A stretch of DNA of 27,272 nucleotides, from assembly GCA_036500365.1 (NCBI GenBank), contig DASYCF010000189.1, positions 1 to 27,272 on the forward strand. The letters run 5' to 3'. Source of the DNA: Byssovorax sp. (lineage in GTDB: Bacteria; Myxococcota_A; Polyangia; Polyangiales; Polyangiaceae). The position numbers and the translations under genes were made by a program. Below, one piece after another: positions 21 through 22,307 of the stretch (position 1 is its first letter; each line of letters begins with the position of its first letter). The notes beneath the pieces were generated by a model, which worked only from the letters and a program-made list of their open reading frames with translations, searched no databases and was not told where the DNA came from.

Positions 21-1430
<1,410 letters not shown>

Positions 1431-7321: not shown

Positions 7322-7325
<4 letters not shown>
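5973..7325 (+). CDS. Membrane-bound sensor histidine kinase (2 TM, HAMP, HisKA, HATPase_c)
   Basis: H-box VAHEVRNPL; N-box DNLVKNAVEA; G1 DEGPG; F-box LFEPFFTTK; G2 GTGLGL; two hydrophobic helices. ATG 5973 preferred over TTG 5955. Confidence 0.95.
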
Positions 7326-8698
<1,373 letters not shown>

Positions 8699-9483: not shown

Positions 9484-12065
9484 CGCGGCACGACGCGGAC
9501 GGCGAACGCGTGCTCGCCCGTGTCGCGCGCCTTCGCCTCGCCCTCGTAGCGGTACGAGCCGTCGGGTCCACGACCCGCGAGCGCGAGCGGGACGGCGGCG
9601 CCGTGCGCGACCGCGTGGCCGCCGTGGAGACGCCCGCAGTAGAGCTCGACGGCGACGTCGTCGGGCGTGAGCTCGCCGAGCGCGACGTTCGCCGCGACAC
9701 CGCACGGCTGCCCGGCGAGGACGCGGCGCGCGCCGATCTGCTCGACGGCGACGACGCGCACGTCCTTCCACGCCGCGCCGACGCGCGCGCGCCACGCGGC
9801 CAGCGCGCGCGACGCCGCGAGGCCCTCGCCCTGCATGGCCCGGACGCGCAGGGCCGCGGGGGCGTACAGCGTCTCGGCGTACTCGCGCACCATCCGCGCG
9901 GTGTTGAAGCTCGCGCCGGTCGACGCGATGCTCCGCTTCACCCGCGCGAGCCAGGCGCGCGGCACGCCGCCCGCGTCGCGGTCGTAGAACGTCGGGACGA
10001 TCTGATCCTCGAGCAGCCGGTAGAGGAGCTCGGCCTCGACGCGATCGCCGTGCTCGGTGTCGGCGTACTCCTCGCCCGCGCCGATCGCGAAGCCGTTGTC
10101 GCCGGCGTACGCCTCGGCCCACCAGCCGTCGAGCACGCTCGCGTGGAGCGCGCCGTTGAGCGCCGCCTTCATGCCGCTCGTCCCGCTCGCCTCGAGCGGG
10201 CGGCGCGGCGTGTTCAGCCACACGTCGACGCCGGAGACGAGCGCGCGCGCGACGCTCATGTCGTAGTCCTCGAGGAACACGATGCGGCCGCGAAACGCCG
10301 GCGTGTTCGAGGCGCGCACGATCTCGCGAATGAGCTCCTTGCCGCCCCAGTCCTGCGGGTGGGCCTTGCCCGAGAAGACGAGCTGCACGGGGCGACCCTC
10401 GCCGCTCACGGCGCGGAGGAGGCGCGCCGCGTCGCGCAGCAAGAGCGTGCCGCGCTTGTACGTCGCGAAGCGCCGCGCGAAGCCGATCGTGAGCGCGCGC
10501 GGGTCGAGCGAGGCGAGCCGCTGCGCCGCCGCGGCCGCGCCGAACGCGACGCCGCTGCGCGAGATGCCCGTCGCGCGGCGCGCCTCGGCCGCGGCGACGT
10601 GCGACGGGATCGACGCGATCAGGCGCGCGCGCTCTGCCTCGCGAACCGCCCAGAGCTCCTCGTCCGGGATGCGCAGCGCGGCCTGCCACGTCGCCTGCTC
10701 GCCCGCGCGCTCGAGCCAGTCCCCGCCGAGGTGCCTCGCGTAGAGCGCGCACATCGCCGAGCTCGTCCACGTCGCCGTGTGCACGCCGTTCGTGATCGAG
10801 CCGATCGGCACCTCGTCGTCGCCGAGCTCGGGCCACAAGACGCGCCACATCGCGCGCGCCTCGCGGCCGTGGAGCAGGCTCACGCCGTTGTAGCGATCGG
10901 CCATGCGGATCGCGAGCACGGGCATCGAGAACTCGGCGCGCGCGTCCGTCGCCTCCACGCGGCCGATCTTGTGCACCTCGTCAGCCGTGAGCGCGACGCC
11001 CTTCGCGAGCACCTCGAGGTATGGCGCGATGAGGTCGTGCGCGAAGCCGTCGTTGCCGGCAGGCACGGGCGTGTGCGTCGTGAACACGTTGCCAGCGGCC
11101 GCGGCCTCACGCGCGACGGAGAACGGCGCGGCCGCGTCGTGCATCAGCTGCCGGACGCGCTCGAGCGCGAGGAACGCCGAGTGCCCCTCGTTCATGTGAC
11201 ACACCGTCGGCGCGACGCCGATCGCGCGCAGCATGCGCACGCCGCCGACGCCGAGGAGCAGCTCCTGGCGGATGCGGTGCTCACGGTCGCCGCCATACAG
11301 CGTGTTCGTCAGCGCGCGATCCTCGGGCGCGTTCTCCTCGAGGTTCGCGTCGAGCAGGTAGAGCGGCACGCGGCCGACGTCGACGCGCCACGCCTCGAGC
11401 GCGACGTCGCGCGTCTTCTTCGCGTCGCCCGCGACGGGCAGCGTGACCGTGACGCGCGCGCGTCGCCCGGCCGCGTCGTTCACCGCGCTGACGGGGAGGT
11501 CGTGCCAGTCGTTCGGCGGGTAGCGCTCGTTCTGCCAGCCCTCGGCGTCGAGCACCTGGCGGAAGTAGCCCTGCGAGAACGCGACGCCCACGCCGACGAG
11601 GGGAACGCCGAGGTCGCTCGCGCTCTTCAGGTGATCGCCCGCGAGCACGCCGAGGCCGCCGGAGTACACGGGCAGGCACGCGTGGATCCCGAACTCCATA
11701 GAGAAGTAGGCGATGGTGGCGCTCGCGATCGCGGCGGTCCCCGCGCCGTCGGCGTTCGGCCGGCCAAACCTGCGATCGAACCACGTCTCGCGGTGGAGGT
11801 ACGTGTCGAGGTCCGCGGTCACCGCGGCGAGCTCGGCGAGGTAGCCCGCGTCTCCCGCGAGCTCGACGAGCCGCGCCGTCGGCGCCCGCGCGACGACCGC
11901 GAGCGGGTTCTCGCCGAGCGCATGAAACGCGTCGGGATCGACGCGCGCGAAGAGCTCGCGCGCGCGATCGTTCCAGGACCACCAGAGGTTGTGCGCGAGC
12001 GAGAGCAGCGGCGCGAGCGGGCGGGGGACGTCGGGGACGACCTCGAAGCGATGAATCTTCTTCAT
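9432..12065 (-). CDS. glgP: Alpha-glucan (glycogen/starch) phosphorylase
   Basis: LAHNLWWSW; YFSMEFG; PVYSGGLGVLAGDHLKSASD; HMNEGH; FTTHTPVPAG; ITNGVH; GFARRFATYKR; GKAHP; PLP-lysine motif EASGTSGMKAALNG. Start is ATG 12065 (MKKIHRFEV), overlapping the upstream stop (ATGA). Confidence 0.97.
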   Translation of the reverse strand: MKKIHRFEVVPDVPRPLAPLLSLAHNLWWSWNDRARELFARVDPDAFHALGENPLAVVARAPTARLVELAGDAGYLAELAAVTADLDTYLHRETWFDRRFGRPNADGAGTAAIASATIAYFSMEFGIHACLPVYSGGLGVLAGDHLKSASDLGVPLVGVGVAFSQGYFRQVLDAEGWQNERYPPNDWHDLPVSAVNDAAGRRARVTVTLPVAGDAKKTRDVALEAWRVDVGRVPLYLLDANLEENAPEDRALTNTLYGGDREHRIRQELLLGVGGVRMLRAIGVAPTVCHMNEGHSAFLALERVRQLMHDAAAPFSVAREAAAAGNVFTTHTPVPAGNDGFAHDLIAPYLEVLAKGVALTADEVHKIGRVEATDARAEFSMPVLAIRMADRYNGVSLLHGREARAMWRVLWPELGDDEVPIGSITNGVHTATWTSSAMCALYARHLGGDWLERAGEQATWQAALRIPDEELWAVREAERARLIASIPSHVAAAEARRATGISRSGVAFGAAAAAQRLASLDPRALTIGFARRFATYKRGTLLLRDAARLLRAVSGEGRPVQLVFSGKAHPQDWGGKELIREIVRASNTPAFRGRIVFLEDYDMSVARALVSGVDVWLNTPRRPLEASGTSGMKAALNGALHASVLDGWWAEAYAGDNGFAIGAGEEYADTEHGDRVEAELLYRLLEDQIVPTFYDRDAGGVPRAWLARVKRSIASTGASFNTARMVREYAETLYAPAALRVRAMQGEGLAASRALAAWRARVGAAWKDVRVVAVEQIGARRVLAGQPCGVAANVALGELTPDDVAVELYCGRLHGGHAVAHGAAVPLALAGRGPDGSYRYEGEAKARDTGEHAFAVRVVPRHEALVDPFGARLVGWE

Positions 12066-14080
12066 TCGTGGATGACGACCAGCGTGCCCTCGCCGTTGTC
12101 CTCGTTCGCGTTCACGCCGTGCCAGCCGTCGGGCATCGGCGGATCGGTCCAGAAGAACAGCCGGTGCGCGTCGACCGGGGCGAGGTTCACGCAGCCGTGG
12201 CTCCGCGGCGTGCCGAAGACGTCGTGCCAGTAAGCGGCGTGGAGCGCATAGCCGCTCTCGAAGTACTGGATCCACGGCACGTCGCGGAGGAGGAACGTGC
12301 CCTCGCCGCGGCGCTTGGTCACGCCGTACTCGCCGTCGCCCTTGCGGGGGACGGGCTTGCCGTGCTCGCTCGGCTCCTTGTCGGCTTTGTCGACCTTCGC
12401 CTTCGAGGCGCCCTTGCCGCCGGTCGACTTGCTCGACGCGACCTTCTCGGCCTTGTCGGCCTTCTTGCCCTTCGCGTGCTTCGTCGGCTTGTCATCGTCT
12501 TCGGCGCGCGCGACGGGCTCGCTCGCGGTCTTCGAATCGGCCTTGCCGCCGACGCTCGAGCGCTCGTTCGAGTCCATCGTCGCGGTGACGTGCTTGTTCC
12601 GGATGTGGAAGACGCCGCGCACGGTGGCCGTCGTCTTCTTCGGATCGTCGAGGCCGGCCGCGCCCGTCGACACGAGCGTCGCGTAGACGGCCTTCTGGCC
12701 CTCCCACATCACGAGCGTCTGGTTCGTGATCGAGATCTCGATCCACTTCTTGCCCTGCTTCGCCTCGTCGGGCCAGGTGGCGGGCGGCACGGCGAGGCCG
12801 ACGTCCTGCGAGCTCAGCCAGTGCTTGTCGGTCGTGCGGTAGTACTTCACGCCCTCGACCGTGCGCATCGTGCCGGTGAGCCCGACCGCGCTCCGGTACT
12901 CGACCGGGTCGCTCGCGACCACCTTGCCCTTGACGATCTTGTAGCTCGTCGCGCCTTGCGAGCGCACGAACGCGAGCGGCGCGTCGAGGCCCCTGCCGAG
13001 CTCGACCCCGTGAAACGGCGAGCCCTCGTCTGGCTTGATCTTGCTCGCGGGCGCGAGGCGCATGTCGGTCGTGATGGCGAAGCGACGATCGAAGCCGTCC
13101 TCCGACGACAGGAACGAGCCGACGAGCGACAGGCCCGCGTGGCGACGCGCGCGATCGGCGAACACCTCGAAGCCCTTCGTGCGGTAGTCGCTGACGTTCG
13201 GGATCGCGCGCTTGTGACCCTCGAGCCAGAACGGCATCGCGTCGGAGTCCCCCTCGCCGCCGAGCAGCGCGCCGAGCGACAGCTCCTCCGAGTTCTTCGC
13301 GAGGCCGAGCTCGCCGAGCTTCTTGTCGGGGATGGCGACGCCGCGCGCGTCGATCGCGACGTCGTTCGCGCCGAGCGCCACCTTCGACGCGGCGGCGCCG
13401 TTGTCCTTGAACCAGTCGAGGTGCTCCTTGAGCTTGAACTCGGCCTTGAGCTGCTCGGCCGCGGTGGGCACGCGCATGTAGAGCGGGAGGACGGCGCGCA
13501 CGAACGCGTACGAGTACGGGAGCGGCGCGGCGAGGTTCGGTCGCTTCTGCGCGGCCTTGAGCAGGGGCGCGTCGAGGTCGACGGTCGCGTCGTCGCCGGC
13601 GCACACGAAGCCGCGCGGCTCGATCTGGTACCAGCCGCCCTTGCAGCCCGCGTGGCCGACGGGCTCCGCGCTCCGCGGCACCTTCGTTCCGACGCGCAGG
13701 TAGCCGAGCTTCTTCGCGGTGTCGCGCGGCTCCTTGTACACGGTGGCGACGAACGCCGTGACGCCGAGGAGCGGCTTGTCGCTCGCGTACGACGGCGTGG
13801 TCGGCGGCCGCTGCGGGTCGGCGACGGGCTCCGCGACGGCGAGGGCGCCTGCGCTCGACATCGGCGAAGCGCTCGACGCGGCGCTCGCCGACGCGGCCGG
13901 GCTCGACGCGACGTGCGTGCCCGCGATGAACGCCGCCGTCGCGACGGCCACGGAGAGCGCGCCGCCCGCGATCACGGCGCGCGACCGCGGAGCCGCCGCG
14001 ATCACGGCCCGCAACCGCGGAGCCGTCGACGACAAGCGGCGCGCCGCTGCGCTCGCGAGGACACTGAACACCCGCGCCAT
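12062..14080 (-). CDS. L,D-transpeptidase (YkuD domain at C-terminus), membrane-anchored, myxobacterial type
   Basis: KWIEISITNQTLVMWEG...YATLVSTG; DVPWIQYF; catalytic ALHAAYWHDVFGTPRSHGCVNL (His and Cys); N-terminal TM segment and Ala/Ser linker. Confidence 0.9.
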   Translation of the reverse strand: MARVFSVLASAAARRLSSTAPRLRAVIAAAPRSRAVIAGGALSVAVATAAFIAGTHVASSPAASASAASSASPMSSAGALAVAEPVADPQRPPTTPSYASDKPLLGVTAFVATVYKEPRDTAKKLGYLRVGTKVPRSAEPVGHAGCKGGWYQIEPRGFVCAGDDATVDLDAPLLKAAQKRPNLAAPLPYSYAFVRAVLPLYMRVPTAAEQLKAEFKLKEHLDWFKDNGAAASKVALGANDVAIDARGVAIPDKKLGELGLAKNSEELSLGALLGGEGDSDAMPFWLEGHKRAIPNVSDYRTKGFEVFADRARRHAGLSLVGSFLSSEDGFDRRFAITTDMRLAPASKIKPDEGSPFHGVELGRGLDAPLAFVRSQGATSYKIVKGKVVASDPVEYRSAVGLTGTMRTVEGVKYYRTTDKHWLSSQDVGLAVPPATWPDEAKQGKKWIEISITNQTLVMWEGQKAVYATLVSTGAAGLDDPKKTTATVRGVFHIRNKHVTATMDSNERSSVGGKADSKTASEPVARAEDDDKPTKHAKGKKADKAEKVASSKSTGGKGASKAKVDKADKEPSEHGKPVPRKGDGEYGVTKRRGEGTFLLRDVPWIQYFESGYALHAAYWHDVFGTPRSHGCVNLAPVDAHRLFFWTDPPMPDGWHGVNANEDNGEGTLVVIHE
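13966..14025. repeat. 30-bp tandem duplication (2 copies, 28/30 identical) in the 5' end of the L,D-transpeptidase gene
   Basis: CCGCGATCACGGCGCGCGACCGCGGAGCCG followed by CCGCGATCACGGCCCGCAACCGCGGAGCCG; encodes APRLRAVIAA / APRSRAVIAG. Confidence 0.9.
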
Positions 14081-14129: not shown

Positions 14130-15815
14130 TCACTCTCCGGGCGTCACGACGGGGCGATAGCGGAACGCGTCGGTCTGCGTGAGCGCGACGAGCAGCGAGC
14201 GAATCGAGTAGTTCGACGCCTTGAACGCGCCCTGGAGCTGCACGAGCGAGCACTCGTTCGGCGTCTCGCCGCGACCGTACGCGAAGCGGAACCACTGCGT
14301 CGCGACGCAGTTCTTCACGTCTTCGCTGCCGGCGAGCCGCTGCGCGAGCTGCACCGCGCCGACGAACGGGCCGTCGCAGTCGCCCGAGTCGTACACGTCG
14401 CCCGACGCGTCGACCGGGAGGCCTTGATCCGTGGTCCGATACGCGCCGACCGCGTCGTAGTTCTCGAACCCGAAGCCGATCGGATCCATCAGGTGGTGGC
14501 ACGTCGCGCACGACGAATCGGCCGAGTGCTCCGCGTAGAGCTCGCGCGTGCTGACGCCGGCCGTGACCTGGGGCGGCGTGATGATGAGGTTGTTCGGCGG
14601 CGGCGGCAGCGGCTGGCACAGCAGACGCTCGCGGACGAACTTGCCGCGGAGGATCGGGCTCGACGTGTCGGGCTTCGCGTTGATCGTCATGATGCTCGGC
14701 TGCGTCACGAAGCCGGCGCGCTCGGTCGGGTCGAGGTCGACCTTCACGAACGACTCGCCGGTCACGCCGCGCACGCCGTAGAAGCTCGCGAGCTCCTCGT
14801 CGACGAGCGAGTACGACGCGGTGAGCATCTCGGTCACGTCGCCCTGGCCCTGGAAGACGACGTAGTCGAGGAACGCCTGCGTCTCGCGCTTCATCAGCGG
14901 AATGAGCGCCGGCGTCCACCTCGGCGAGACGTACTCCGCGTCCTTCGTCACGGTGTCGATGTCGTCGAGGCCGAGCCACTGCGTGTGGAAGTTCTCGACG
15001 GCGTCGTGCGCGCGCGGGTCGTCGAGCATGCGCGTGGCCTGCGCGGCGATTTGATCGGCCGTCTCGAGCTCGCCAGCGGCCGCCGCGGCGAAGAGCGCGT
15101 CGTCTGGCGTCGAGTTCCAGAGCATGAACGAGAGGCGCGACGCCATCTCGTAGTCGTCGAGCTGCACGACGCCGGCCGACACCTCGGTCGTCGTGCCGAA
15201 CTCGACGCGGTAGAGGAAGTGCGGCGACTGGAGCACCGCCTCGATGACCAACTGGATCGCGGACTGGAAGCCGAACGTCGGCTTGGCCGTGGTGTAGAGG
15301 TTCGTGAGGCGCGTCGTCGTCGAGTCGTCGAGCGGGCGGCGGAACGCGCGGCCCCCGAAATCGGCGATGAACTGCGCGGCGCACGCGTCCTGGCCGGTGA
15401 CGGTCACGTCGCACTTGAGGAGCGTCGGCATGTCGCGCGTCGCCCGGATGGCGATGCTTTCGGCGGCGTCGAGGTACTGCTCGGCGAGGAGCTTCGAGAC
15501 GGCGAGCGACGTCGCCTGATCGTCGAAGCCGAGCGACTGCGCCTCGGGCACCATGTCGGCGGCGGGGTTCGACGTGTCGCCGAGGAGATCGCGGATCGTG
15601 TTGTCGTACTCGGTCCGCGTGAGCCTGCGCATCGGCGCGGCGCCCGGGTTGATCCCGCCGCCGCAGTCGGCCGTCTGCGGGACGTCGACCGGGTTCGGCG
15701 GATCGCCGAGGTCGCCCGAGGTGCATCCGGCGACGACGCCGCCAGCGAGCGCCACGAAGAGCGCGACGCCCATGCCGAGCGAGGTCCGACGGTGCCTCCA
15801 ACGCTGCAAGCGCAT
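14130..15815 (-). CDS. DUF1592-family lipoprotein (DUF1587-DUF1595-DUF1592-DUF1588-DUF1585-type architecture) with a CxxCH motif
   Basis: Lipobox VVAGC; MRRLTRTEYDNTIRDLLG; RAFRRPL; VLQSPHFLYRVE; YEMASRLSFMLWNSTPDDAL; SPILRGKFVRERLLC; SCATCHHLMDPIGFGFENYDAVG. ATG 15815 has a GGAG RBS. Confidence 0.88.
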   Translation of the reverse strand: MRLQRWRHRRTSLGMGVALFVALAGGVVAGCTSGDLGDPPNPVDVPQTADCGGGINPGAAPMRRLTRTEYDNTIRDLLGDTSNPAADMVPEAQSLGFDDQATSLAVSKLLAEQYLDAAESIAIRATRDMPTLLKCDVTVTGQDACAAQFIADFGGRAFRRPLDDSTTTRLTNLYTTAKPTFGFQSAIQLVIEAVLQSPHFLYRVEFGTTTEVSAGVVQLDDYEMASRLSFMLWNSTPDDALFAAAAAGELETADQIAAQATRMLDDPRAHDAVENFHTQWLGLDDIDTVTKDAEYVSPRWTPALIPLMKRETQAFLDYVVFQGQGDVTEMLTASYSLVDEELASFYGVRGVTGESFVKVDLDPTERAGFVTQPSIMTINAKPDTSSPILRGKFVRERLLCQPLPPPPNNLIITPPQVTAGVSTRELYAEHSADSSCATCHHLMDPIGFGFENYDAVGAYRTTDQGLPVDASGDVYDSGDCDGPFVGAVQLAQRLAGSEDVKNCVATQWFRFAYGRGETPNECSLVQLQGAFKASNYSIRSLLVALTQTDAFRYRPVVTPGE

Positions 15816-15980
15816 TTCGTAAGCTCCGCGCCAGGGCGCGCAGGCCCGAGCCCGCAAAGGCTACCGCCGCGCCGACCCACCGTCGACCCCGTTCGCCTGC
15901 GCTCGGCGTCGCGACGTGAAACCTCGCGTGTTCGACCGTCGCGCGCGAAAGCTGCGACCCGATGTACTAGGCTCCGCGGC

Positions 15981-16823
15981 GTGACTTACTCCGGCGCCGC
16001 TCGCCCAGCGGCCCTCGGCGCGATCGCGAGCGCGCTCGCCTTCGCCGCGGCCACCGCGTCGCTCGCCCGGCCCGCCGAAGCGGACGAGCCGGCGCGCGAG
16101 AAGAACGCGGTCGGCACCGAGCTCTTCGAGTTCGGCCTCGCGATGGCCGCCGGGGGACGACGCTTCACGTACTCGGATCCGGTTTCGGCGAACATCCGCG
16201 ACTACAGCGTGTTCGGCGCGGTGATGCCCGAGCTCCACCTCGCGTTCTACCCTGCCGCGGACACCGGGATCACGTTCGCGCGCGACGTCGGCTTCGAGCT
16301 CACGGCGACGAGCGCGTTCGGCCTGTCGTCGCAGTCGAGCGACGGAACCAGCGTCGGCAGCTCGTACGATCGCCTCGACGCGATGGTGCGCGCGCGGTTC
16401 TTTCCGGCGGGCCGGACCGGCACGTCGCTCGGCCTCGCGGGCGGCGCGTCGCTGCTGCGGTTCTCGTACGACGCGAGCGGCTCGCTGGCCGACCAGGTGC
16501 CGGGCGCCGCGTACGAATCGCTCCGCCTCGCCGGCGACGCGCGAGCGCCGATCGGCCGCGGCGCGCTGACGATCGCGATCGCGTACGACGCGCCGCTCAC
16601 GGCGGGCGACGTATACGACCGCTTCACCGGCTCGACCGTAGGTGGGATCGACGTGCGCCTCGGCGCGTCGTTCCTCGTCGGCGCGGGCGTCGAGGTGCGC
16701 GCGGCCGCGTCGTACACGCGCTTCTTCTATGCGTTCGCGCCCGTCCCCGGTGACACCTACGTGGCGGGCGGCGCCCTCGACGAGTTCTTCGGCCTGTCGC
16801 TCGGAGCTGCGTATGCGTACTGA
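15981..16823 (+). CDS. Putative outer-membrane beta-barrel protein (about 10 strands), unknown function
   Basis: Sec-type signal peptide ending AEA; about 10 alternating amphipathic strands (ELFEFGLAMAAG, VGFELTATSAFG, GVEVRAAASYTRFFY); C-terminal aromatic beta-signal GLSLGAAYAY. This is the tail of track ORF 13719..16823; the GTG 15981 start is inferred. Confidence 0.7.
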   Translation: MTYSGAARPAALGAIASALAFAAATASLARPAEADEPAREKNAVGTELFEFGLAMAAGGRRFTYSDPVSANIRDYSVFGAVMPELHLAFYPAADTGITFARDVGFELTATSAFGLSSQSSDGTSVGSSYDRLDAMVRARFFPAGRTGTSLGLAGGASLLRFSYDASGSLADQVPGAAYESLRLAGDARAPIGRGALTIAIAYDAPLTAGDVYDRFTGSTVGGIDVRLGASFLVGAGVEVRAAASYTRFFYAFAPVPGDTYVAGGALDEFFGLSLGAAYAY

Positions 16824-17541
16824 TCCGGCGCGCTCGAGCCTCCGCCTGCGCGCCGTCGCGGCGGCGCTCGCGGCCCTCGGCGCAGGCGCGTCGCTCGCGG
16901 GCTGCCCCGGCACGCTCGACGACAAAGGCGCGTTCCTGCACCCGGACGGGAGCGACTGCCCCGACGTGCCGTCGACGATCTTCATCCCGAACTGCGCGAC
17001 CGCCCCGGGGTGCCACTCCGCCGCCGATCGCATGCAGGGCCTCGACCTCGCGTCGCCGAACGTGGCCGCGCGCGTCGTCAACCAGCCCGCGAAGGAGTGC
17101 GTGCCCGGCATCCTCGCCGACCCCGCGAACCCGTCGCAGAGCATCCTCTATTTGAAGCTGTTCCAGCCGGCGCCGTGCGGCTCGCAGATGCCCCTCGGCG
17201 CCGACCCGCTGAGCGACACGCAGATCGCGTGCGTCGAGACGTGGATCCAGGATCAAGGCGCGGGCGGCAGCGGCGTCGGCGGATCGGGCGGAGCCGGCGG
17301 CGCGACGGGGGTGGGCGGCGCGGCGCAGTCCGGATCAGGCGGCGCGGGCGGCGCAGGCGGGACCGCAGCGGGCGGCGGCGGCGCAGGTGGTCTCGGAGGC
17401 ACTGCGCCGACCGGAGGTGGCGGCTCCGCGAGCAGCGGCGCCGCGAGCGCGTCGGGCGGCGCCGGTCTCGGCGGCGCGAGCGCGACCGGCACATCGGGTG
17501 GCGCAGGTCGCGGTGGCGCGGGCGGCGGCGGCGGCGCGTGA
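16813..17541 (+). CDS. Lipoprotein with atypical CX5CH cytochrome-c-like domain and Gly/Ala/Ser-rich tail
   Basis: Canonical lipobox SLAGC; CATAPGCH (16993-17016); distal GSQMPLG; WI at domain end; about 94-aa Gly-rich tail. ATG 16813 has a GGAG RBS and overlaps the beta-barrel gene by 11 nt. Confidence 0.7.
   Translation: MRTDPARSSLRLRAVAAALAALGAGASLAGCPGTLDDKGAFLHPDGSDCPDVPSTIFIPNCATAPGCHSAADRMQGLDLASPNVAARVVNQPAKECVPGILADPANPSQSILYLKLFQPAPCGSQMPLGADPLSDTQIACVETWIQDQGAGGSGVGGSGGAGGATGVGGAAQSGSGGAGGAGGTAAGGGGAGGLGGTAPTGGGGSASSGAASASGGAGLGGASATGTSGGAGRGGAGGGGGA
17257..17538 (+). repeat. Low-complexity Gly/Ala/Ser/Thr (GGC-rich) coding repeat
   Basis: GAGGSGVGGSGGAGGATGVGG...GGGGGA running to the stop codon. 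Confidence 0.9.
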
Positions 17542-17542
17542 C

Positions 17543-17558
17543 GCCGGGGCGCCCCGGC
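17543..17558. terminator. Perfect 16-bp palindrome GCCGGGGCGCCCCGGC just after a stop codon; possible terminator or RNA stabiliser without a U-tract
   Basis: Self-complementary; starts 1 nt after the TGA ending at 17541; no poly-T. Confidence 0.35.
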
Positions 17559-17573
17559 TGAAGGCTCGCGCCG

Positions 17574-19868
17574 ATGCGACTCCGGCTGCGATCGTTCGCG
17601 CTCGCGGCGCTGCCCGTCCTCTACGTCGCCGCGGTCTCCGTGCAGCAGACGGGCGGCAGCGCGCTCGCGTTCGCCATGCTCGGAGGCCTCCCGCTCGCGC
17701 TCCTCTTCGCCTGGTCGCGCACGGCGCCGCCGGTGCGAGGCGTCGATCGAACCGACGGGGTCGCGCGAACCGGGGCGCGCGTCGCGTTCACGGGCGCGGC
17801 GCTGGTCTGCGCCGCGCGGACGGGCACCGGCGGCGCAGGGTTCCTCGCCGCAGAGAACCTCGGCGCCGCGCTCGCGGCGACCGGCGGCCTCGTCGCGTTC
17901 TCGCGTGTGCAGGGACCGGGCGGCCTGGTCGACGCGTCGCCGCGGCCACGGAGGCTCGACGCCGCCGCGTTCGGCTCGCTGCTCTGGGCGGTCGCGATCG
18001 CGCTGCCTGCGGCGCAGATCGCGGCGCCGGACCGCGCGCAGGGGCTCGACCCGCGCTGGCTCGACTACGGCGTCGTCGCGGCGTCGCTCGCGTCGCTCGG
18101 CGTGATGCTCGCCTCGACCGCGCTCGTGCTCGTGCAGAAGCGCCTCGAGCTCGGCGCCGCCGACCGCGCCGGCGCTGCGTTCTCGCTCGCGCTGACGGCG
18201 CTGCTCGTCGGCGTGCTCGCGGCGGTGACGGGCGTGGCGCCGGCCGAGCGCCTGCTCCCGCTCGCGTGCGCGTGCGCCGGCGTCGCGCTGGCGGCGAGCG
18301 CGGTCGCGCGGGAGGCCGACGCGCTCGCACAGGCGAACCGCGTCACGCTCGCCGCCGCCGCGCTCGTCGCGCCGCTCGCCCTCTTCGCGGGGTACGTCGC
18401 GCGCGTGGCGCCGAAGCGGAGCGCGGCCACGGTCGCCGTCGCCGTCGCCGCGGCGTCGCTTGCGGGGATGATCGCGCCGATCCTCGGACGGCGCCTCTTC
18501 GCGCCGGCCGCGGGGCGGTGGCTCTCCGCGCTCGACGCCGCGACGCGCGCCGCGATGACGCCCGATCCCGAGGCCGCGCTCGAGGCTGCGCTGCTCGCGC
18601 TGCGCGCCGCCGCGGGCCAGCGCGGCAAGGACCCGGCGCTCTATTTCGTGGGCGTCCCCGAGGTCGTCACCGTCGACCGGGCCGGGTACGCGCGGCGGGA
18701 GCGCGCGGAGCCGCCGCCGCGCCTCGTCGAGCTGGCGGCCGAGGAGCCCGAGGGCGTGCTGCGGCTCGAGGTGCTGCGCGCGGTGCTCGTGCGCAGGCCC
18801 GACGTGCGCCCGCTCGAGGCGTGGCTCGATCAGCGCGGCTTCTCGGCGCTCGCGCTCGTTCGCGACGACGCGGGGCCGATCGGACTGCTCGCCATCCCGG
18901 CTGGCTCACGTCGCCGCGCGTGGACGCTCGAGGAGGCGCGCGCGCTGCGCCGGCTCGCGGATCGTCTCGGCGCGGTGATCGGCGCGTCGGCGCTCCTCGC
19001 GAGGTCGCGCGCGCGTGAGCTCGAGGTGCGCGGCGAGCTGGCGAACGCGCGGACCCAGATCACGGAGCACGCCGCGGCGCGCGCCCGCGACGCGACACGC
19101 CACCGCGCCGCCGCCGAGGCGCTCGCGCGGCGAGCGCGCCTCGCGTCGTACAGCCCCGCCGCACGCGCGGCGCGCGAGGCCATCGAGCGGCTCGCCGAGC
19201 GCGGCCGACCGATCGCGCTGTTGTCCGCGCCCGGCATCGACGCGTCGACGTGGGCAGCGGCGGCGCACCTCGCGTCGGCGCGCCGCGACGGTCCGCTGGT
19301 CGTCGTCGCGGGGACCCGCGTCGCGGAGCACGGCCTCGATCGATGGCGCGACCCCGCCGCGTCGCCGCTCGCGGCCGCGGAGACGGGCACGCTCGTGCTC
19401 CTCGACGCGCAGGCGCTCCCGCTCGACGTGCAGCGCTACGTCGCGGCGTCGCTGGGGGACTCGACCGGCCTCGTCGTCTCGCTCCGCGCGACGGTCGACG
19501 CGCTCGTCGCCGCCGACGCGCTCGGCGAAGAGCTCGCGGATCGGCTCGGCGATCGCGCCGTCGCGCTGCCGCCGCTCGCCGCCCGCGCCGAGGACCTGCG
19601 CGCGCTCACGCTCGAGATCCTGGCCGAGCTCTCGATCACGCTCGGCGCGCGGGCCGTCGGCCTCGACGCGATGGCCCTCGCGGTCCTGCTCGAGCACGAG
19701 TTCCCGGGCAACGACGCCGAGCTCGCGGCGGTGCTCGTCCGCGCCGCGCTCGCAGCGCGAGGGGACGCGATCACCCGGGCCGACCTCGAGCGCGCAGGGT
19801 TCACGGCGGCGGCCGAGCTGTCTCCACACCCGCGGCGCGCGTCGAGCAGGCCCCCGCGCGCGCGCTGA
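17574..19868 (+). CDS. Polytopic membrane protein with a GAF-like middle region and a degenerate sigma54-activator-type AAA+ domain, no HTH
   Basis: First 310 or so aa contain about 9-10 hydrophobic helices. The C-terminal part is collinear with enhancer-binding AAA+ domains: YSPAARAAREAIERLA, GPLVVV, GTLVLLDA, ELADRL, LPPLAARAEDL, EFPGNDAEL. Confidence 0.7.
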   Translation: MRLRLRSFALAALPVLYVAAVSVQQTGGSALAFAMLGGLPLALLFAWSRTAPPVRGVDRTDGVARTGARVAFTGAALVCAARTGTGGAGFLAAENLGAALAATGGLVAFSRVQGPGGLVDASPRPRRLDAAAFGSLLWAVAIALPAAQIAAPDRAQGLDPRWLDYGVVAASLASLGVMLASTALVLVQKRLELGAADRAGAAFSLALTALLVGVLAAVTGVAPAERLLPLACACAGVALAASAVAREADALAQANRVTLAAAALVAPLALFAGYVARVAPKRSAATVAVAVAAASLAGMIAPILGRRLFAPAAGRWLSALDAATRAAMTPDPEAALEAALLALRAAAGQRGKDPALYFVGVPEVVTVDRAGYARRERAEPPPRLVELAAEEPEGVLRLEVLRAVLVRRPDVRPLEAWLDQRGFSALALVRDDAGPIGLLAIPAGSRRRAWTLEEARALRRLADRLGAVIGASALLARSRARELEVRGELANARTQITEHAAARARDATRHRAAAEALARRARLASYSPAARAAREAIERLAERGRPIALLSAPGIDASTWAAAAHLASARRDGPLVVVAGTRVAEHGLDRWRDPAASPLAAAETGTLVLLDAQALPLDVQRYVAASLGDSTGLVVSLRATVDALVAADALGEELADRLGDRAVALPPLAARAEDLRALTLEILAELSITLGARAVGLDAMALAVLLEHEFPGNDAELAAVLVRAALAARGDAITRADLERAGFTAAAELSPHPRRASSRPPRAR

Positions 19869-19878
19869 CGAGGTCGGC

Positions 19879-20784
19879 TCAGGCGCGCTGCGCCGGGCGC
19901 CCCTCCGCGAGCTTGAAGCCCGCCGACACCTCGCTCGCGAACGACTCGACGAGCCGCCGCGCCGCCGCCCTCGCGTCGGGGATGCCCTTCGCGGCGCGCG
20001 CGAGCACGGCCATCGCCGCTGGCCCCGGCTGGCGCGCCATGGCGCGGTACGCGAGCGATCGGCCGGGGGCGACCGCGATCAGCGCGAGCGTCGACGCCGA
20101 CCACGCGAACTGCGGCGTCGCGCGCGTGGCCGTGGCGATGTCCGTCAGCGGCGAGCGCGTGAGCCAGAGGGCGAGCGCGGCCTCGAACTCGTCCGCCGAG
20201 AGCGCGCCGATGCCCGCCGCCATGCTGCCGAGCGTCACCTTGCGCGAGTCGACCGTCACCTGGCGGAGCGACGGCCACGCGAGCAGGCGCGGCGGGGCCG
20301 GCTGGCCGCGAAAGCGCGCCGAGCCCGTCCACCACGCGACCGTCGAGTCGGTGCGCACGACGTCGAGCGTGCGCGCGAAGGTCGCGTGCCGCGCGAGCGC
20401 CGAGCCCACGTCGCGCGGCGGCGGCACGCGCTCGCACACGGCGACGACGTTCGCGACGAGGCGCCGGTGTCGCCCGCGCGTGAGCGGCCCTGCGAGCTCG
20501 TGGTTCGTCGCCTGCAGCAGGTCGTTGAGCGCGGCGACGAGCGCGAACGACGACGCGTCGACCGGCTTCACGGTGTCGACCGGCGCGAGGAGCCGCGCGC
20601 GGCGGACCCGCGCGACGTCGAGCGCGAGCCGCAGCTCGAGGTTCGCGAGCTCGCGGCCCTTCGCGAACTTGAGCGCGAGCGTCGCGCCGAACGGCCGCGT
20701 GAGGTGCAGCTCACCGCCGAGCACGAGCGGCCCGAGCACGTGCTCCGCGAGCTCTTCGAAGCGCTCCGCGAGCTCGTCGCTCAA
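19879..20784 (-). CDS. Hypothetical protein (301 aa), possibly an FtsH-ternary-system (fvmX-like) component
   Basis: TTG start overlaps the upstream stop (TTGA, 20784-20781); typical codon bias; aromatic/Arg motif ARHATFAR...VAWWTGSARFRGQPAPPRLLAWP. The family resemblance is from recollection only. Confidence 0.6.
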   Translation of the reverse strand: MSDELAERFEELAEHVLGPLVLGGELHLTRPFGATLALKFAKGRELANLELRLALDVARVRRARLLAPVDTVKPVDASSFALVAALNDLLQATNHELAGPLTRGRHRRLVANVVAVCERVPPPRDVGSALARHATFARTLDVVRTDSTVAWWTGSARFRGQPAPPRLLAWPSLRQVTVDSRKVTLGSMAAGIGALSADEFEAALALWLTRSPLTDIATATRATPQFAWSASTLALIAVAPGRSLAYRAMARQPGPAAMAVLARAAKGIPDARAAARRLVESFASEVSAGFKLAEGRPAQRA

Positions 20785-22307
20785 CGACCCGCCCCGCTGT
20801 CGGCCGGCGCGTCGGGCTTGGGCAACGCAGCGGGGCTCGGCAGGTCGCGCATCGGCCGGATGCCGACGCCCTCGAGCATGAGCTCCGAGATCTCGGTCGC
20901 GAGCGCGGCCTCGAGGCCGGTCGACGTCGCGTCGAGCGGCGCCCACGCCTGCGCCTCGAGCAGCGCGGTCTCGAGCGGGACGAACGCGTCGCTCGGGATG
21001 CCGATCGCGCGCCCGTCGCGGCCGATGAAGAGCACGCGCCCAGACGGCGAGCCGAGCGCGCGATAGAGCACCTCGGGCGCGACCGCGGGCACGGCGTCGT
21101 AGCCGGCCGGGATGTAGAGCCCGGCGCGGAGCTCGCGGAAGAACTCGCCCACGGGGATGCCCTCGATGCCCGTCGGGTGCCGGAGGAAGACGCCCTGCGC
21201 GGTGAGCGCGACCTCGGCGCGGCGGAGCGTCTCGGGCCCGAGCGCGTACGCGACCTGGCGGAGGAGCGGCATCTCCTCGGGCCGAATCCAGCTCGCCGTG
21301 ACCGACCGCCACGGCTCCGACGTCGGAAAGAGGCGCAGCGCGAGCGAGACGGACCCCGGCTTGGCGAGCGCCGGCGACCCGCGCGCCGTGGCGACGTCTT
21401 GCCTGAGCTCGACGCGCGCGAACGCCGCGACGTCGCCGAGCGCAGGCAGCTTCGGCAGCTCGAGGACGTCTTGACCGCCGCCGCGAAAGAGCACGAGCCC
21501 TGCCTCGTTGAACACGGGGCACGCGCGGAGGTTCACCGGGTGCCGGTGCCCGGACTCGACCGCCGCGCCCGGCGCCACGGGCAGGAACACGCCGAGGCCC
21601 GGCGTGTGAGAGAGCAGCGGCAGCATGCGCTCCGGCACCTCCGGCACGCGGAACACGTAGCGAACGACGGGCGCGTCGTCGAAGCTCGACGTGGGCGGCC
21701 ACTCGGCGACGCCGACCTCGGCGTCGACCTGCGAGCGCACGAAATAGTGGATCAGCGCAGGCCCGAGCCCGGCCTCGGCGACGATCCAGCGCTGGCCCGG
21801 CTCCCGCGCCGTCGACGGATCGGGGTGCGGCTCGAGCCGCAGGAGGAGCGCGCGGACCTCGATCTTCCGCTCGACGTCGTACACCTGCGAAAAGGCGTTG
21901 TGATAGAGCGCGAGCGCGGCGTCGCTCGCGGTGATCTGCGCGATGTCGTAGCCGAAGGGCGCCGCGGCGTCGCGATACTGGACGAAGTGGCGGCTCGTCC
22001 CCGTGAAGGTGTACCCGCCCGCGAGGCGCGCGACCTCGGCGACGCGATCCATGCGATCGCTGCTCTCGGCGCCGAACGTGAGCGTGACCTCGCGCGCGCC
22101 GAGCTTGGACTTCACGACGTCGACGGACAGCGAGCGCAGGATGTCCGCGAGCGAGCCCTGGCGCGTGTAGAGCGCGAGGAACGCGACCAGGCGGTCGATC
22201 GACGGGAGGAGCACGAGGCCCTTGGCGCCGAGCGCGACGCCCTTCGCCTCGAGGCCGAGGCCGGGCGTGCGGAGCCGCGTCTGATGGACCGCGACTCGAT
22301 CGAGCAT
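20781..22307 (-). CDS. Hypothetical soluble protein (508 aa), possibly an FtsH-ternary-system (fvmX-like) component
   Basis: Balanced globular composition, strong codon bias, coupled to the downstream gene, no signal peptide or TM segment. The CDS is well supported; the function is not. Confidence 0.65.
   Translation of the reverse strand: MLDRVAVHQTRLRTPGLGLEAKGVALGAKGLVLLPSIDRLVAFLALYTRQGSLADILRSLSVDVVKSKLGAREVTLTFGAESSDRMDRVAEVARLAGGYTFTGTSRHFVQYRDAAAPFGYDIAQITASDAALALYHNAFSQVYDVERKIEVRALLLRLEPHPDPSTAREPGQRWIVAEAGLGPALIHYFVRSQVDAEVGVAEWPPTSSFDDAPVVRYVFRVPEVPERMLPLLSHTPGLGVFLPVAPGAAVESGHRHPVNLRACPVFNEAGLVLFRGGGQDVLELPKLPALGDVAAFARVELRQDVATARGSPALAKPGSVSLALRLFPTSEPWRSVTASWIRPEEMPLLRQVAYALGPETLRRAEVALTAQGVFLRHPTGIEGIPVGEFFRELRAGLYIPAGYDAVPAVAPEVLYRALGSPSGRVLFIGRDGRAIGIPSDAFVPLETALLEAQAWAPLDATSTGLEAALATEISELMLEGVGIRPMRDLPSPAALPKPDAPADSGAGR

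Follow-up and report, generated by a model that had tools for sequence, protein, structure and literature searches.

The enhancer-binding proteins of bacteria (bEBPs) are commonly portrayed as soluble machines, powered by ATP, for the opening of sigma54 promoters. What use does a cell have for a bEBP-type AAA+ domain that is anchored in the membrane and has lost its catalytic residues? This question is raised by one gene in a 27,272-nucleotide stretch of DNA from Byssovorax sp. (contig DASYCF010000189.1), which we analyzed at its full length and call the window. A sequence-only reading had described this gene as an intact open reading frame (ORF) for a membrane-embedded pseudo-bEBP, possibly a sensor that sequesters or poisons genuine activators, or else a scaffold. 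We conclude that its product, P0001, is probably a functional pseudo-enzyme, namely a polytopic inner-membrane receptor of Polyangiales with a bEBP-type AAA+ domain, catalytically dead, as its output.

P0001 is 764 amino acids (aa) long, and its start codon is backed by homologue alignments that begin at residue 1. The AlphaFold2 model of the protein has a mean predicted local distance difference test score (pLDDT) of 88.6 (second figure given: 90.0), and the domain order is ten transmembrane (TM) helices, a GAF domain, a long helix, an AAA+ core and an AAA+ lid. The expectation that an intact ORF fuses about 10 TM helices and a GAF/helix region to the AAA+ part was borne out by the open frame, hydropathy, the model and fold searches, and the gene divides as follows, the tail being one without a helix-turn-helix (HTH) domain.

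17574–19868, + strand: whole gene of the membrane pseudo-bEBP P0001, 764 aa plus stop (open ORF; homologues align from residue 1)
17574–18503, + strand: ten TM helices, residues 1–310, a putative intramembrane sensor (hydropathy, AlphaFold2 helices)
18504–18923, + strand: GAF domain, residues 311–450 (VIA-align, Foldseek; weak Pfam GAF matches in the sister proteins described below)
18924–19148, + strand: single continuous helix of about 72 residues joining GAF to AAA+, residues 451–525 (AlphaFold2 helix 452–523, pLDDT about 90; signalling-helix-like)
19149–19577, + strand: AAA+ alpha/beta core of the bEBP type with its catalytic residues gone, residues 526–668 (profile against PDB bEBPs, E = 1e-26 to 1e-17; Foldseek, sub-threshold Pfam)
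19578–19808, + strand: AAA+ lid, residues 669–745, including R671, D674 and a sensor II remnant (Pfam AAA_lid_14)
19809–19865, + strand: disordered, non-conserved tail with an Arg-rich end and no HTH, residues 746–764 (pLDDT below 50; column conservation 0.12)

The C-terminal domain is a bEBP-type AAA+ domain, and the resemblance is far beyond chance. In the Pfam search of P0001, AAA_lid_14 (PF25601) matched residues 670–744 with 36 bits against a gathering cut-off of 27 (E = 6.4e-9), Sigma54_activ_2 (PF14532) matched with 21.4 bits, which is under its cut-off of 25 but runs end to end (profile positions 5–138), and PF00158 gave no match; no NCBIfam model reached its cut-off (best: 50 bits with 529 required). 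A profile built from 39 family members matched the PDB structure of NtrC1 (4l4u) with E = 1.2e-26 across core and lid, and matched structures of NtrC1, NifA, ZraR, FleQ, PspF, FlrC and LuxO with E = 1e-26 to 1e-12 (NifA AAA+: E = 5e-26). Similarly, Foldseek superposed model residues 526–745 on the AAA+ domains of NtrC1, FlrC, PspF and FleQ (1ny6, 6lua and others) with E of about 1e-9 and template-modelling scores (TM-scores) by target of 0.68–0.76; VpsR was also among the structural matches. The AAA+ assignment made from the letters alone is therefore upheld by profile comparison and by superposition, and the region does model as AAA+.

As references for the motifs we used the two response-regulator bEBPs of the window (21–1430 and 7322–8698), both of which carry Response_reg, Sigma54_activat, AAA_lid_14 and HTH_8 matches in Pfam; the C-terminal 240 residues of P0001 span the whole central domain in this alignment. 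Four stretches stand out.

19224–19247, + strand: Walker A remnant SAPGIDAS, residues 551–558, replacing GESGTGKE (A557 for Lys, D556 for the second Gly)
19329–19370, + strand: family-specific segment in place of the GAFTGA-bearing L1 loop, residues 586–599 (W591, D593, S597-P598; alignments)
19392–19409, + strand: Walker B remnant LVLLDA, residues 607–612 (L610 at the Asp position, D611 at the Glu position)
19701–19724, + strand: sensor II remnant FPGNDAEL, from F710, which is WPGNVREL in bEBPs (A715 at the Arg position)

The L1 stretch with GAFTGA is gone, as the earlier reading had it, and the shorter RWRDPAASPL stands in its place; GAFTGA is the motif on loop L1 that contacts sigma54 (PMC7175178). 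The stretch before sensor I (L2) is shorter by about 14 residues than in the window bEBPs. The FLDE of these bEBPs aligns with L609-L610-D611-A612, and the Walker B residue that was lost is the aspartate because D611 aligns with the glutamate; the loss of the motif stood, whereas its description as a missing Glu had to be refined. At the arginine-finger positions P0001 has G651 (first; PspF R162) and R657 (second; PspF R168), where R162 and R168, and R227 for sensor II, are what we take to be the PspF numbers. The chain stops 51 residues past PGN, and no C-terminal HTH (HTH_8) was matched by Pfam in P0001, in agreement with the earlier observation. P0001 still has LPxLxxRxEDL in its lid, and PGN..EL as well. 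Judged from these alignments, the residues for nucleotide binding and hydrolysis, the L1 loop for sigma54 contact and the HTH are all lost and L2 is shortened, and P0001 is predicted neither to hydrolyze ATP, nor to remodel sigma54, nor to bind DNA through an HTH. The claim that every catalytic motif is lost holds for the determinants of ATPase activity, sigma54 contact and DNA binding; R657 still occupies the second-finger position, and D611 keeps an acidic residue where the Walker B Glu would be.

These losses are shared by the family. Among 106 full-length family representatives, the Walker A lysine position is never Lys (Pro in 52, Ala in 35), the sensor II arginine is present in 2, and the first arginine-finger column does not have Arg among its seven commonest residues; the second finger is Arg in 51. 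The altered site is far from random in composition: G554 of the Walker A remnant is invariant (106/106) and D556 nearly so (94/106), H565 occurs in 101/106, the position of the glutamate-switch Asn is Asp or Glu in 95/106, and D611 in the Walker B region is kept in 74/106. In the lid, R671 (106/106), D674 (105/106) and E716 (104/106) hardly vary, and the segment replacing L1 keeps W591, S597 and P598 in 87, 87 and 88 of the 106, respectively. Column conservation peaks in the AAA core, ahead of every other part of the protein; the 72-residue helix has conserved columns at R477, R481 and E482. The absence of an HTH from the 106 representatives was judged by tail lengths and sequences. The tails are rich in Arg and Lys at their very end (at least 3 basic residues among the last 8 in 66/106; mean 2.9 versus 0.86 expected), which may mean lipid or nucleic-acid affinity, or merely high-GC composition.

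The family is also widespread within its order. A word-indexed search retrieved 144 homologues at 38–60% identity, the named ones all from Polyangia (Sorangium, Chondromyces, Byssovorax and Minicystis), and an exhaustive profile search using the N-terminal 505 residues gave, after clustering at 50% identity, 392 representatives, of which 178 had E below 1e-30; the non-fragmentary ones are nearly all 740–810 aa long. The gene was found as a single copy in 22 of the 23 sampled genomes of the window's family (Polyangiaceae). Sister families within the order have it in 16 of their 25 sampled genomes, and it was found in none of about 250 genomes sampled outside the order (301 sampled in the phylum). 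Its reading frame is intact in every genome examined. The identical 764-aa protein was called on three soil-metagenome contigs, and on one of the contigs two bases of the gene are not those of the window, both at third positions and both synonymous.

Nei-Gojobori ratios of nonsynonymous to synonymous substitution (dN/dS) were estimated for four Sorangium orthologues (So ce56, GT47, So ce854 and So0157-2) over just those columns in which the window protein is aligned as well. The overall value was 0.24 (TM: 0.24; GAF: 0.29; helix: 0.31; AAA core: 0.22; lid: 0.18), where the absolute values are rough, being pairwise estimates in a genome of extreme GC content at third codon positions; in the same genomes two upstream neighbour genes gave 0.59 and about 1.0. 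The dead AAA+ domain is at least as constrained as the remainder of the protein. Selection on the orthologues is purifying and not relaxed, contrary to what decay would leave behind, and we conclude that this order-wide, single-copy family is a functional pseudo-enzyme, i.e., a conserved, catalytically dead homologue. Since the AAA+ domain is dead and the DNA-binding end is missing, yet both the domain and the protein are under selection, signalling must go another way.

A view of where this family comes from is given by seven sister-family proteins, open frames of 807–855 aa that pair a polytopic N-terminus (6–10 hydrophobic peaks) with a GAF-helix region; the N-terminal profile matched that region in all seven with E = 1e-8 to 1e-29.

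L026, 1007–3553, + strand: sister protein
L027, 1204–3768, + strand: sister protein
L028, 1088–3604, - strand: sister protein
L029, 1104–3662, - strand: sister protein
L033, 1043–3562, - strand: sister protein
L034, 1013–3559, - strand: sister protein
L035, 1036–3456, - strand: sister protein

The sisters have matches to Sigma54_activat or Sigma54_activ_2, six of the seven have AAA_lid_14, and a clear C-terminal HTH_8 is present (E = 1e-9 to 1e-13). In the alignment their Walker A is without the GK motif and GAFTGA is absent as well. In a FastTree phylogeny built from the AAA+ region, with canonical bEBPs as the root, the membrane proteins all fell into a single long-stemmed clade, with the HTH-bearing proteins basal and the HTH-less family nested and monophyletic; P0119, a distant member of the HTH-less clade, still has WPGNVREL. 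No sampled genome of the window's family has a second, HTH-bearing copy. The simplest history would be that a GAF-AAA+-HTH activator, built like NifA, NorR and Nlh2, gained a membrane sensor and lost its ATPase and sigma54 coupling early, and that the clade of the window then lost the HTH. Because sister lineages keep a Fis-type HTH on an equally dead AAA+ domain, loss of the ATPase would date back to an ancestor that still bound DNA, and this makes specific recruitment of the domain as a poison subunit a weaker idea. The seven sisters themselves look, from their sequences, like membrane-integral, ATP-independent transcription factors, a class that we have not found described.

What the membrane half does can be approached through its fold. 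The AlphaFold2 model places TM helices at residues 2–26, 30–50, 62–82, 88–110, 129–150, 160–188, 195–218, 224–244, 248–278 and 280–308 (pLDDT about 90), with outer loops of only a few residues between them. The topology is probably N-in/C-in with both termini cytoplasmic, because the N-terminus is basic and the number of helices is even. The Pfam search of P0001 itself gave no GAF match; in structure, residues 311–478 align with many GAF domains at VIA-align Z scores of 9–11 (NifA 8jrc: 10.2; Nlh2 4g3v: 9.9; PtsP 3trc: 10.7; Nlh1 4g3k was also matched), and Foldseek matches GAF domains too. Among AlphaFold DB clusters, a similar TM, GAF and helix module is fused to GGDEF, histidine-kinase, guanylate-cyclase or PPM-phosphatase outputs (E = 1e-9 to 1e-5). 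Pfam and NCBIfam gave no sequence-level match to HisKA_7TM or PrsK, and PDB relatives of the TM domain were limited to generic 7TM-bundle similarity, none of it convincing. On the strength of these models, the N-terminal 500 residues resemble the kind of membrane sensor module whose usual output is an enzyme domain; the proposal of a membrane sensor, made before any fold search, fits these matches to histidine-kinase and cyclase sensors.

Under the receptor reading that we favour, a signal would be sensed inside the membrane or by the GAF domain. It would travel down a dimeric signalling helix, by analogy with the histidine kinases and GGDEF cyclases that have a similar TM, GAF and helix module, and would alter the packing or exposure of the two pseudo-AAA+ domains. 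The pattern for such a dimer is that of NtrC1, DctD and Nlh2, whose AAA+ domains are held in regulated dimers by coiled-coil linkers. The pseudo-AAA+ domain of P0001 would serve as a nucleotide-independent module for protein binding or assembly, one that binds or releases a cytoplasmic partner, and its candidate binding surfaces are the PGxD remnant of the P-loop, the W-x-D-x3-SP segment that replaces L1, and R671 and D674 of the lid. Acidic residues take up several of the positions at which active bEBPs touch the nucleotide (D556; in most members D/E579; D611; D/E714), which would argue against the binding of phosphates.

Several observations weigh against this reading. The key nodes of the tree are modestly supported (Shimodaira-Hasegawa-like values of 0.60 and 0.77). 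An ESM Atlas structural search retrieved PrsK-family and HisKA_7TM sensors at TM-scores of 0.50–0.58, a match of moderate strength and in structure only, and TM helices 2–8 resemble a 7TM bundle with VIA-align Z scores of 10–12, a range that is common for helical bundles. Dimerization via the long helix is a putative feature deduced from the architecture, and a nucleotide or a second messenger may, as far as the sequence shows, bind in a non-canonical pocket. The sequence is contained only in DNA runs from soil metagenomes, and no expression data were found. Finally, no universal neighbour or fixed partner appeared across the loci examined. The most frequent neighbour, a convergent pair encoding a 301-aa and a 508-aa protein, lies nearby in about 11 of 26 loci and was rejected as a partner: the 508-aa protein is class-wide and occurs also in families without the pseudo-bEBP, while among the 23 sampled genomes of the window's family 8 gave no match to it and 7 more have it on another contig or far off.

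Of the other explanations, the one that survives best is a decoy or anti-activator, in which the dead AAA+ domain would co-assemble with, cap or sequester genuine bEBPs at the membrane, so that a membrane signal tunes sigma54 transcription negatively; we consider it unlikely. It is in keeping with the retained bEBP core fold and LPxLxxRxEDL lid motif, with more than 20 bEBP-like loci in the incomplete genome, and with the existence of hetero-oligomeric bEBP pairs such as HrpR/HrpS. In Minicystis, a genuine activator gene even follows the pseudo-bEBP gene after 56 nt on the same strand:

L036, 9342–11336, + strand: Sigma54_activat protein of 664 aa

Of the roughly 30 loci examined, however, this is the only one with a real bEBP adjacent. 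In the window, unrelated genes separate P0001 from the two activators, at distances of 9 and 16 kb, and a link between them and P0001 was rejected for want of a shared transcription unit or conserved adjacency. The first arginine finger is lost, the second is unconserved, L1 is deleted and L2 is shortened, and all of these shape the ring interface; furthermore, the HTH-bearing sisters with the same dead site suggest an earlier role that was not that of a decoy. Quite doubtful, too, is the joint proposal that a signal-gated decoy inserts into or caps bEBP rings at the membrane while the HTH-bearing sisters form an unrecognized class of membrane-integral, ATP-independent transcription factors. 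If a decoy it were, Polyangiales, with their dozens of bEBPs, would gain a global, envelope-controlled brake on sigma54 transcription.

A second alternative, by analogy with FleQ and VpsR and with little probability in our judgement, is that the ligand of the remodelled pocket is no longer ATP but a second messenger, a metal ion or a basic peptide, and that P0001 is a membrane-localized effector of that ligand. The pocket residues (G554, D556, H565, D/E at the switch Asn, D611 and D/E714) are conserved and not randomized, a GAF domain is present, and VpsR and FleQ, which bind cyclic di-GMP via their AAA+ domains, are among the structural matches. In two Minicystis-like loci a diadenylate cyclase gene (DACNG/DACNH/DAC) is divergent from and adjacent to the pseudo-bEBP gene, with a YkuD L,D-transpeptidase gene beyond:

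L036, 5348–6661, - strand: diadenylate cyclase, Minicystis-like genome
L062, 3303–4865, - strand: diadenylate cyclase, Minicystis-like genome

This neighbourhood is limited to one subclade, though, and an acidic pocket without Lys or Arg is ill-suited to phosphates.

It is improbable that the membrane domain is itself the effector (a transporter, a channel or a lipid-handling protein), with GAF and pseudo-AAA+ as a mere regulatory or structural appendage. Ten TM helices are more than most sensors need, one sister protein has a sub-threshold Pfam match resembling an undecaprenyl-phosphate translocase (24.6 bits versus 26), and an L,D-transpeptidase gene recurs near several loci; against this, the best structural matches of the TM domain are kinase and cyclase sensor modules and 7TM bundles, not transporters, the cytoplasmic AAA+ is the most conserved region, and the same module drives an HTH in sister lineages. 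Hardly credible, and set aside, is decay, i.e., a former membrane bEBP heading for loss, which would account for the absence of all catalytic motifs and the HTH but is contradicted by distribution and intact frames, by dN/dS of about 0.2 within the dead domain, by family-specific residues of the dead motifs that are invariant over 106 clusters, and by the two synonymous differences on the second contig.

Two genes precede the pseudo-bEBP gene on the same strand in the window.

15981–16823, + strand: outer-membrane-barrel-like protein, upstream (gene call)
16813–17541, + strand: Cys-motif lipoprotein, upstream, with a 32-nt gap to the pseudo-bEBP gene

In the window these genes may be co-transcribed with the pseudo-bEBP gene, but they are not a family-wide partner; as operon partners they were rejected, since apart from the window this arrangement is limited to Sorangium, Chondromyces and G230. 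Both are fast-evolving among Sorangium, for which variable-length, low-complexity Gly/Ser/Thr/Pro linkers are partly responsible (L012, L059, L060 and L061), and in the lipoprotein motif five residues separate the Cys in the window and four in So ce56. A perfect 16-bp palindrome, GCCGGGGCGCCCCGGC, at 17543–17558, takes up half of the 32 nt that separate the stop of the lipoprotein gene from the pseudo-bEBP start; it has no T-run after it and may serve as an operator or form a structure in the RNA. No match to a sigma54 promoter motif was found near 15774–15980 or 17542–17573.

Other loci have other neighbours. In ten of them a divergent group of PhoH-PIN, MATCAP and/or TonB-receptor genes is found, and a YkuD gene lies nearby in the window (12062–14080), in So ce56 and GT47, and in one sister-family locus (L056). 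Neither Pfam nor the Atlas yielded a lead on the 301-aa protein. The 508-aa protein, encoded in the window at 20781–22307 on the - strand, is found across the class at 30–73% identity, and the match crosses one or two in-frame stops in G010, G275, G110 and G105, with TGA in three of the four. With so varied a neighbourhood, context yields no partner.

Compared with known systems, P0001 recombines familiar parts. NifA, NorR and Aquifex Nlh1/Nlh2 have the same order of GAF, helical linker, AAA+ core and lid; to this P0001 adds the 10-TM N-terminus and the linker helix of about 72 residues, and it differs from them in being without the Walker A Lys, GAFTGA/L1, the Walker B Asp, a conserved arginine finger, the sensor II Arg and the HTH, and in its shortened L2. 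TyrR, Rhodobacter capsulatus NtrC and HupR are sigma54-independent bEBP relatives in which GAFTGA is absent or altered; they are soluble and keep the HTH, and TyrR keeps ATP binding. P0001 likewise has a bEBP-derived domain without sigma54 contact, but it is membrane-integral and has neither the P-loop lysine nor an HTH, and the closer analogue of the TyrR group is the set of HTH-bearing sisters (L026–L029 and L033–L035). To the PrsK-family and HisKA_7TM (PF16927) sensors P0001 bears a structural resemblance in its layout of a multi-helix membrane domain with minimal outer loops, a GAF domain and a long helix, whereas its output is a dead AAA+ domain and not a kinase, GGDEF or cyclase domain. 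The clamp-loader subunits delta and delta-prime are inactive AAA+ proteins that serve as structural parts within a ring with active paralogues. The likeness to them lies in an AAA+ fold kept without catalysis, presumably for protein contacts; P0001 is of an unrelated clade and membrane-bound, and the ring with active paralogues is a feature of the clamp loader.

Neither a full-text literature search nor NCBIfam turned up a description of a bEBP of the P0001 kind, membrane-bound or catalytically dead, or of its HTH-bearing membrane sisters. Sigma54-independent bEBP relatives such as TyrR and degenerate Sigma54_activ_2 domains are already known; what looks new is the family of membrane-integral, HTH-less, dead bEBPs together with the HTH-bearing sisters. 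These proteins offer a natural series for how an AAA+ fold is kept without the use of ATP, from the active soluble bEBP to the membrane protein with a dead AAA+ domain and an HTH, and from there to the same without the HTH. An orthologue (P0077) is present in the genetically tractable Sorangium cellulosum So ce56, and the family hints that myxobacteria which make epothilone and other natural products have a route of signalling that has yet to be studied.

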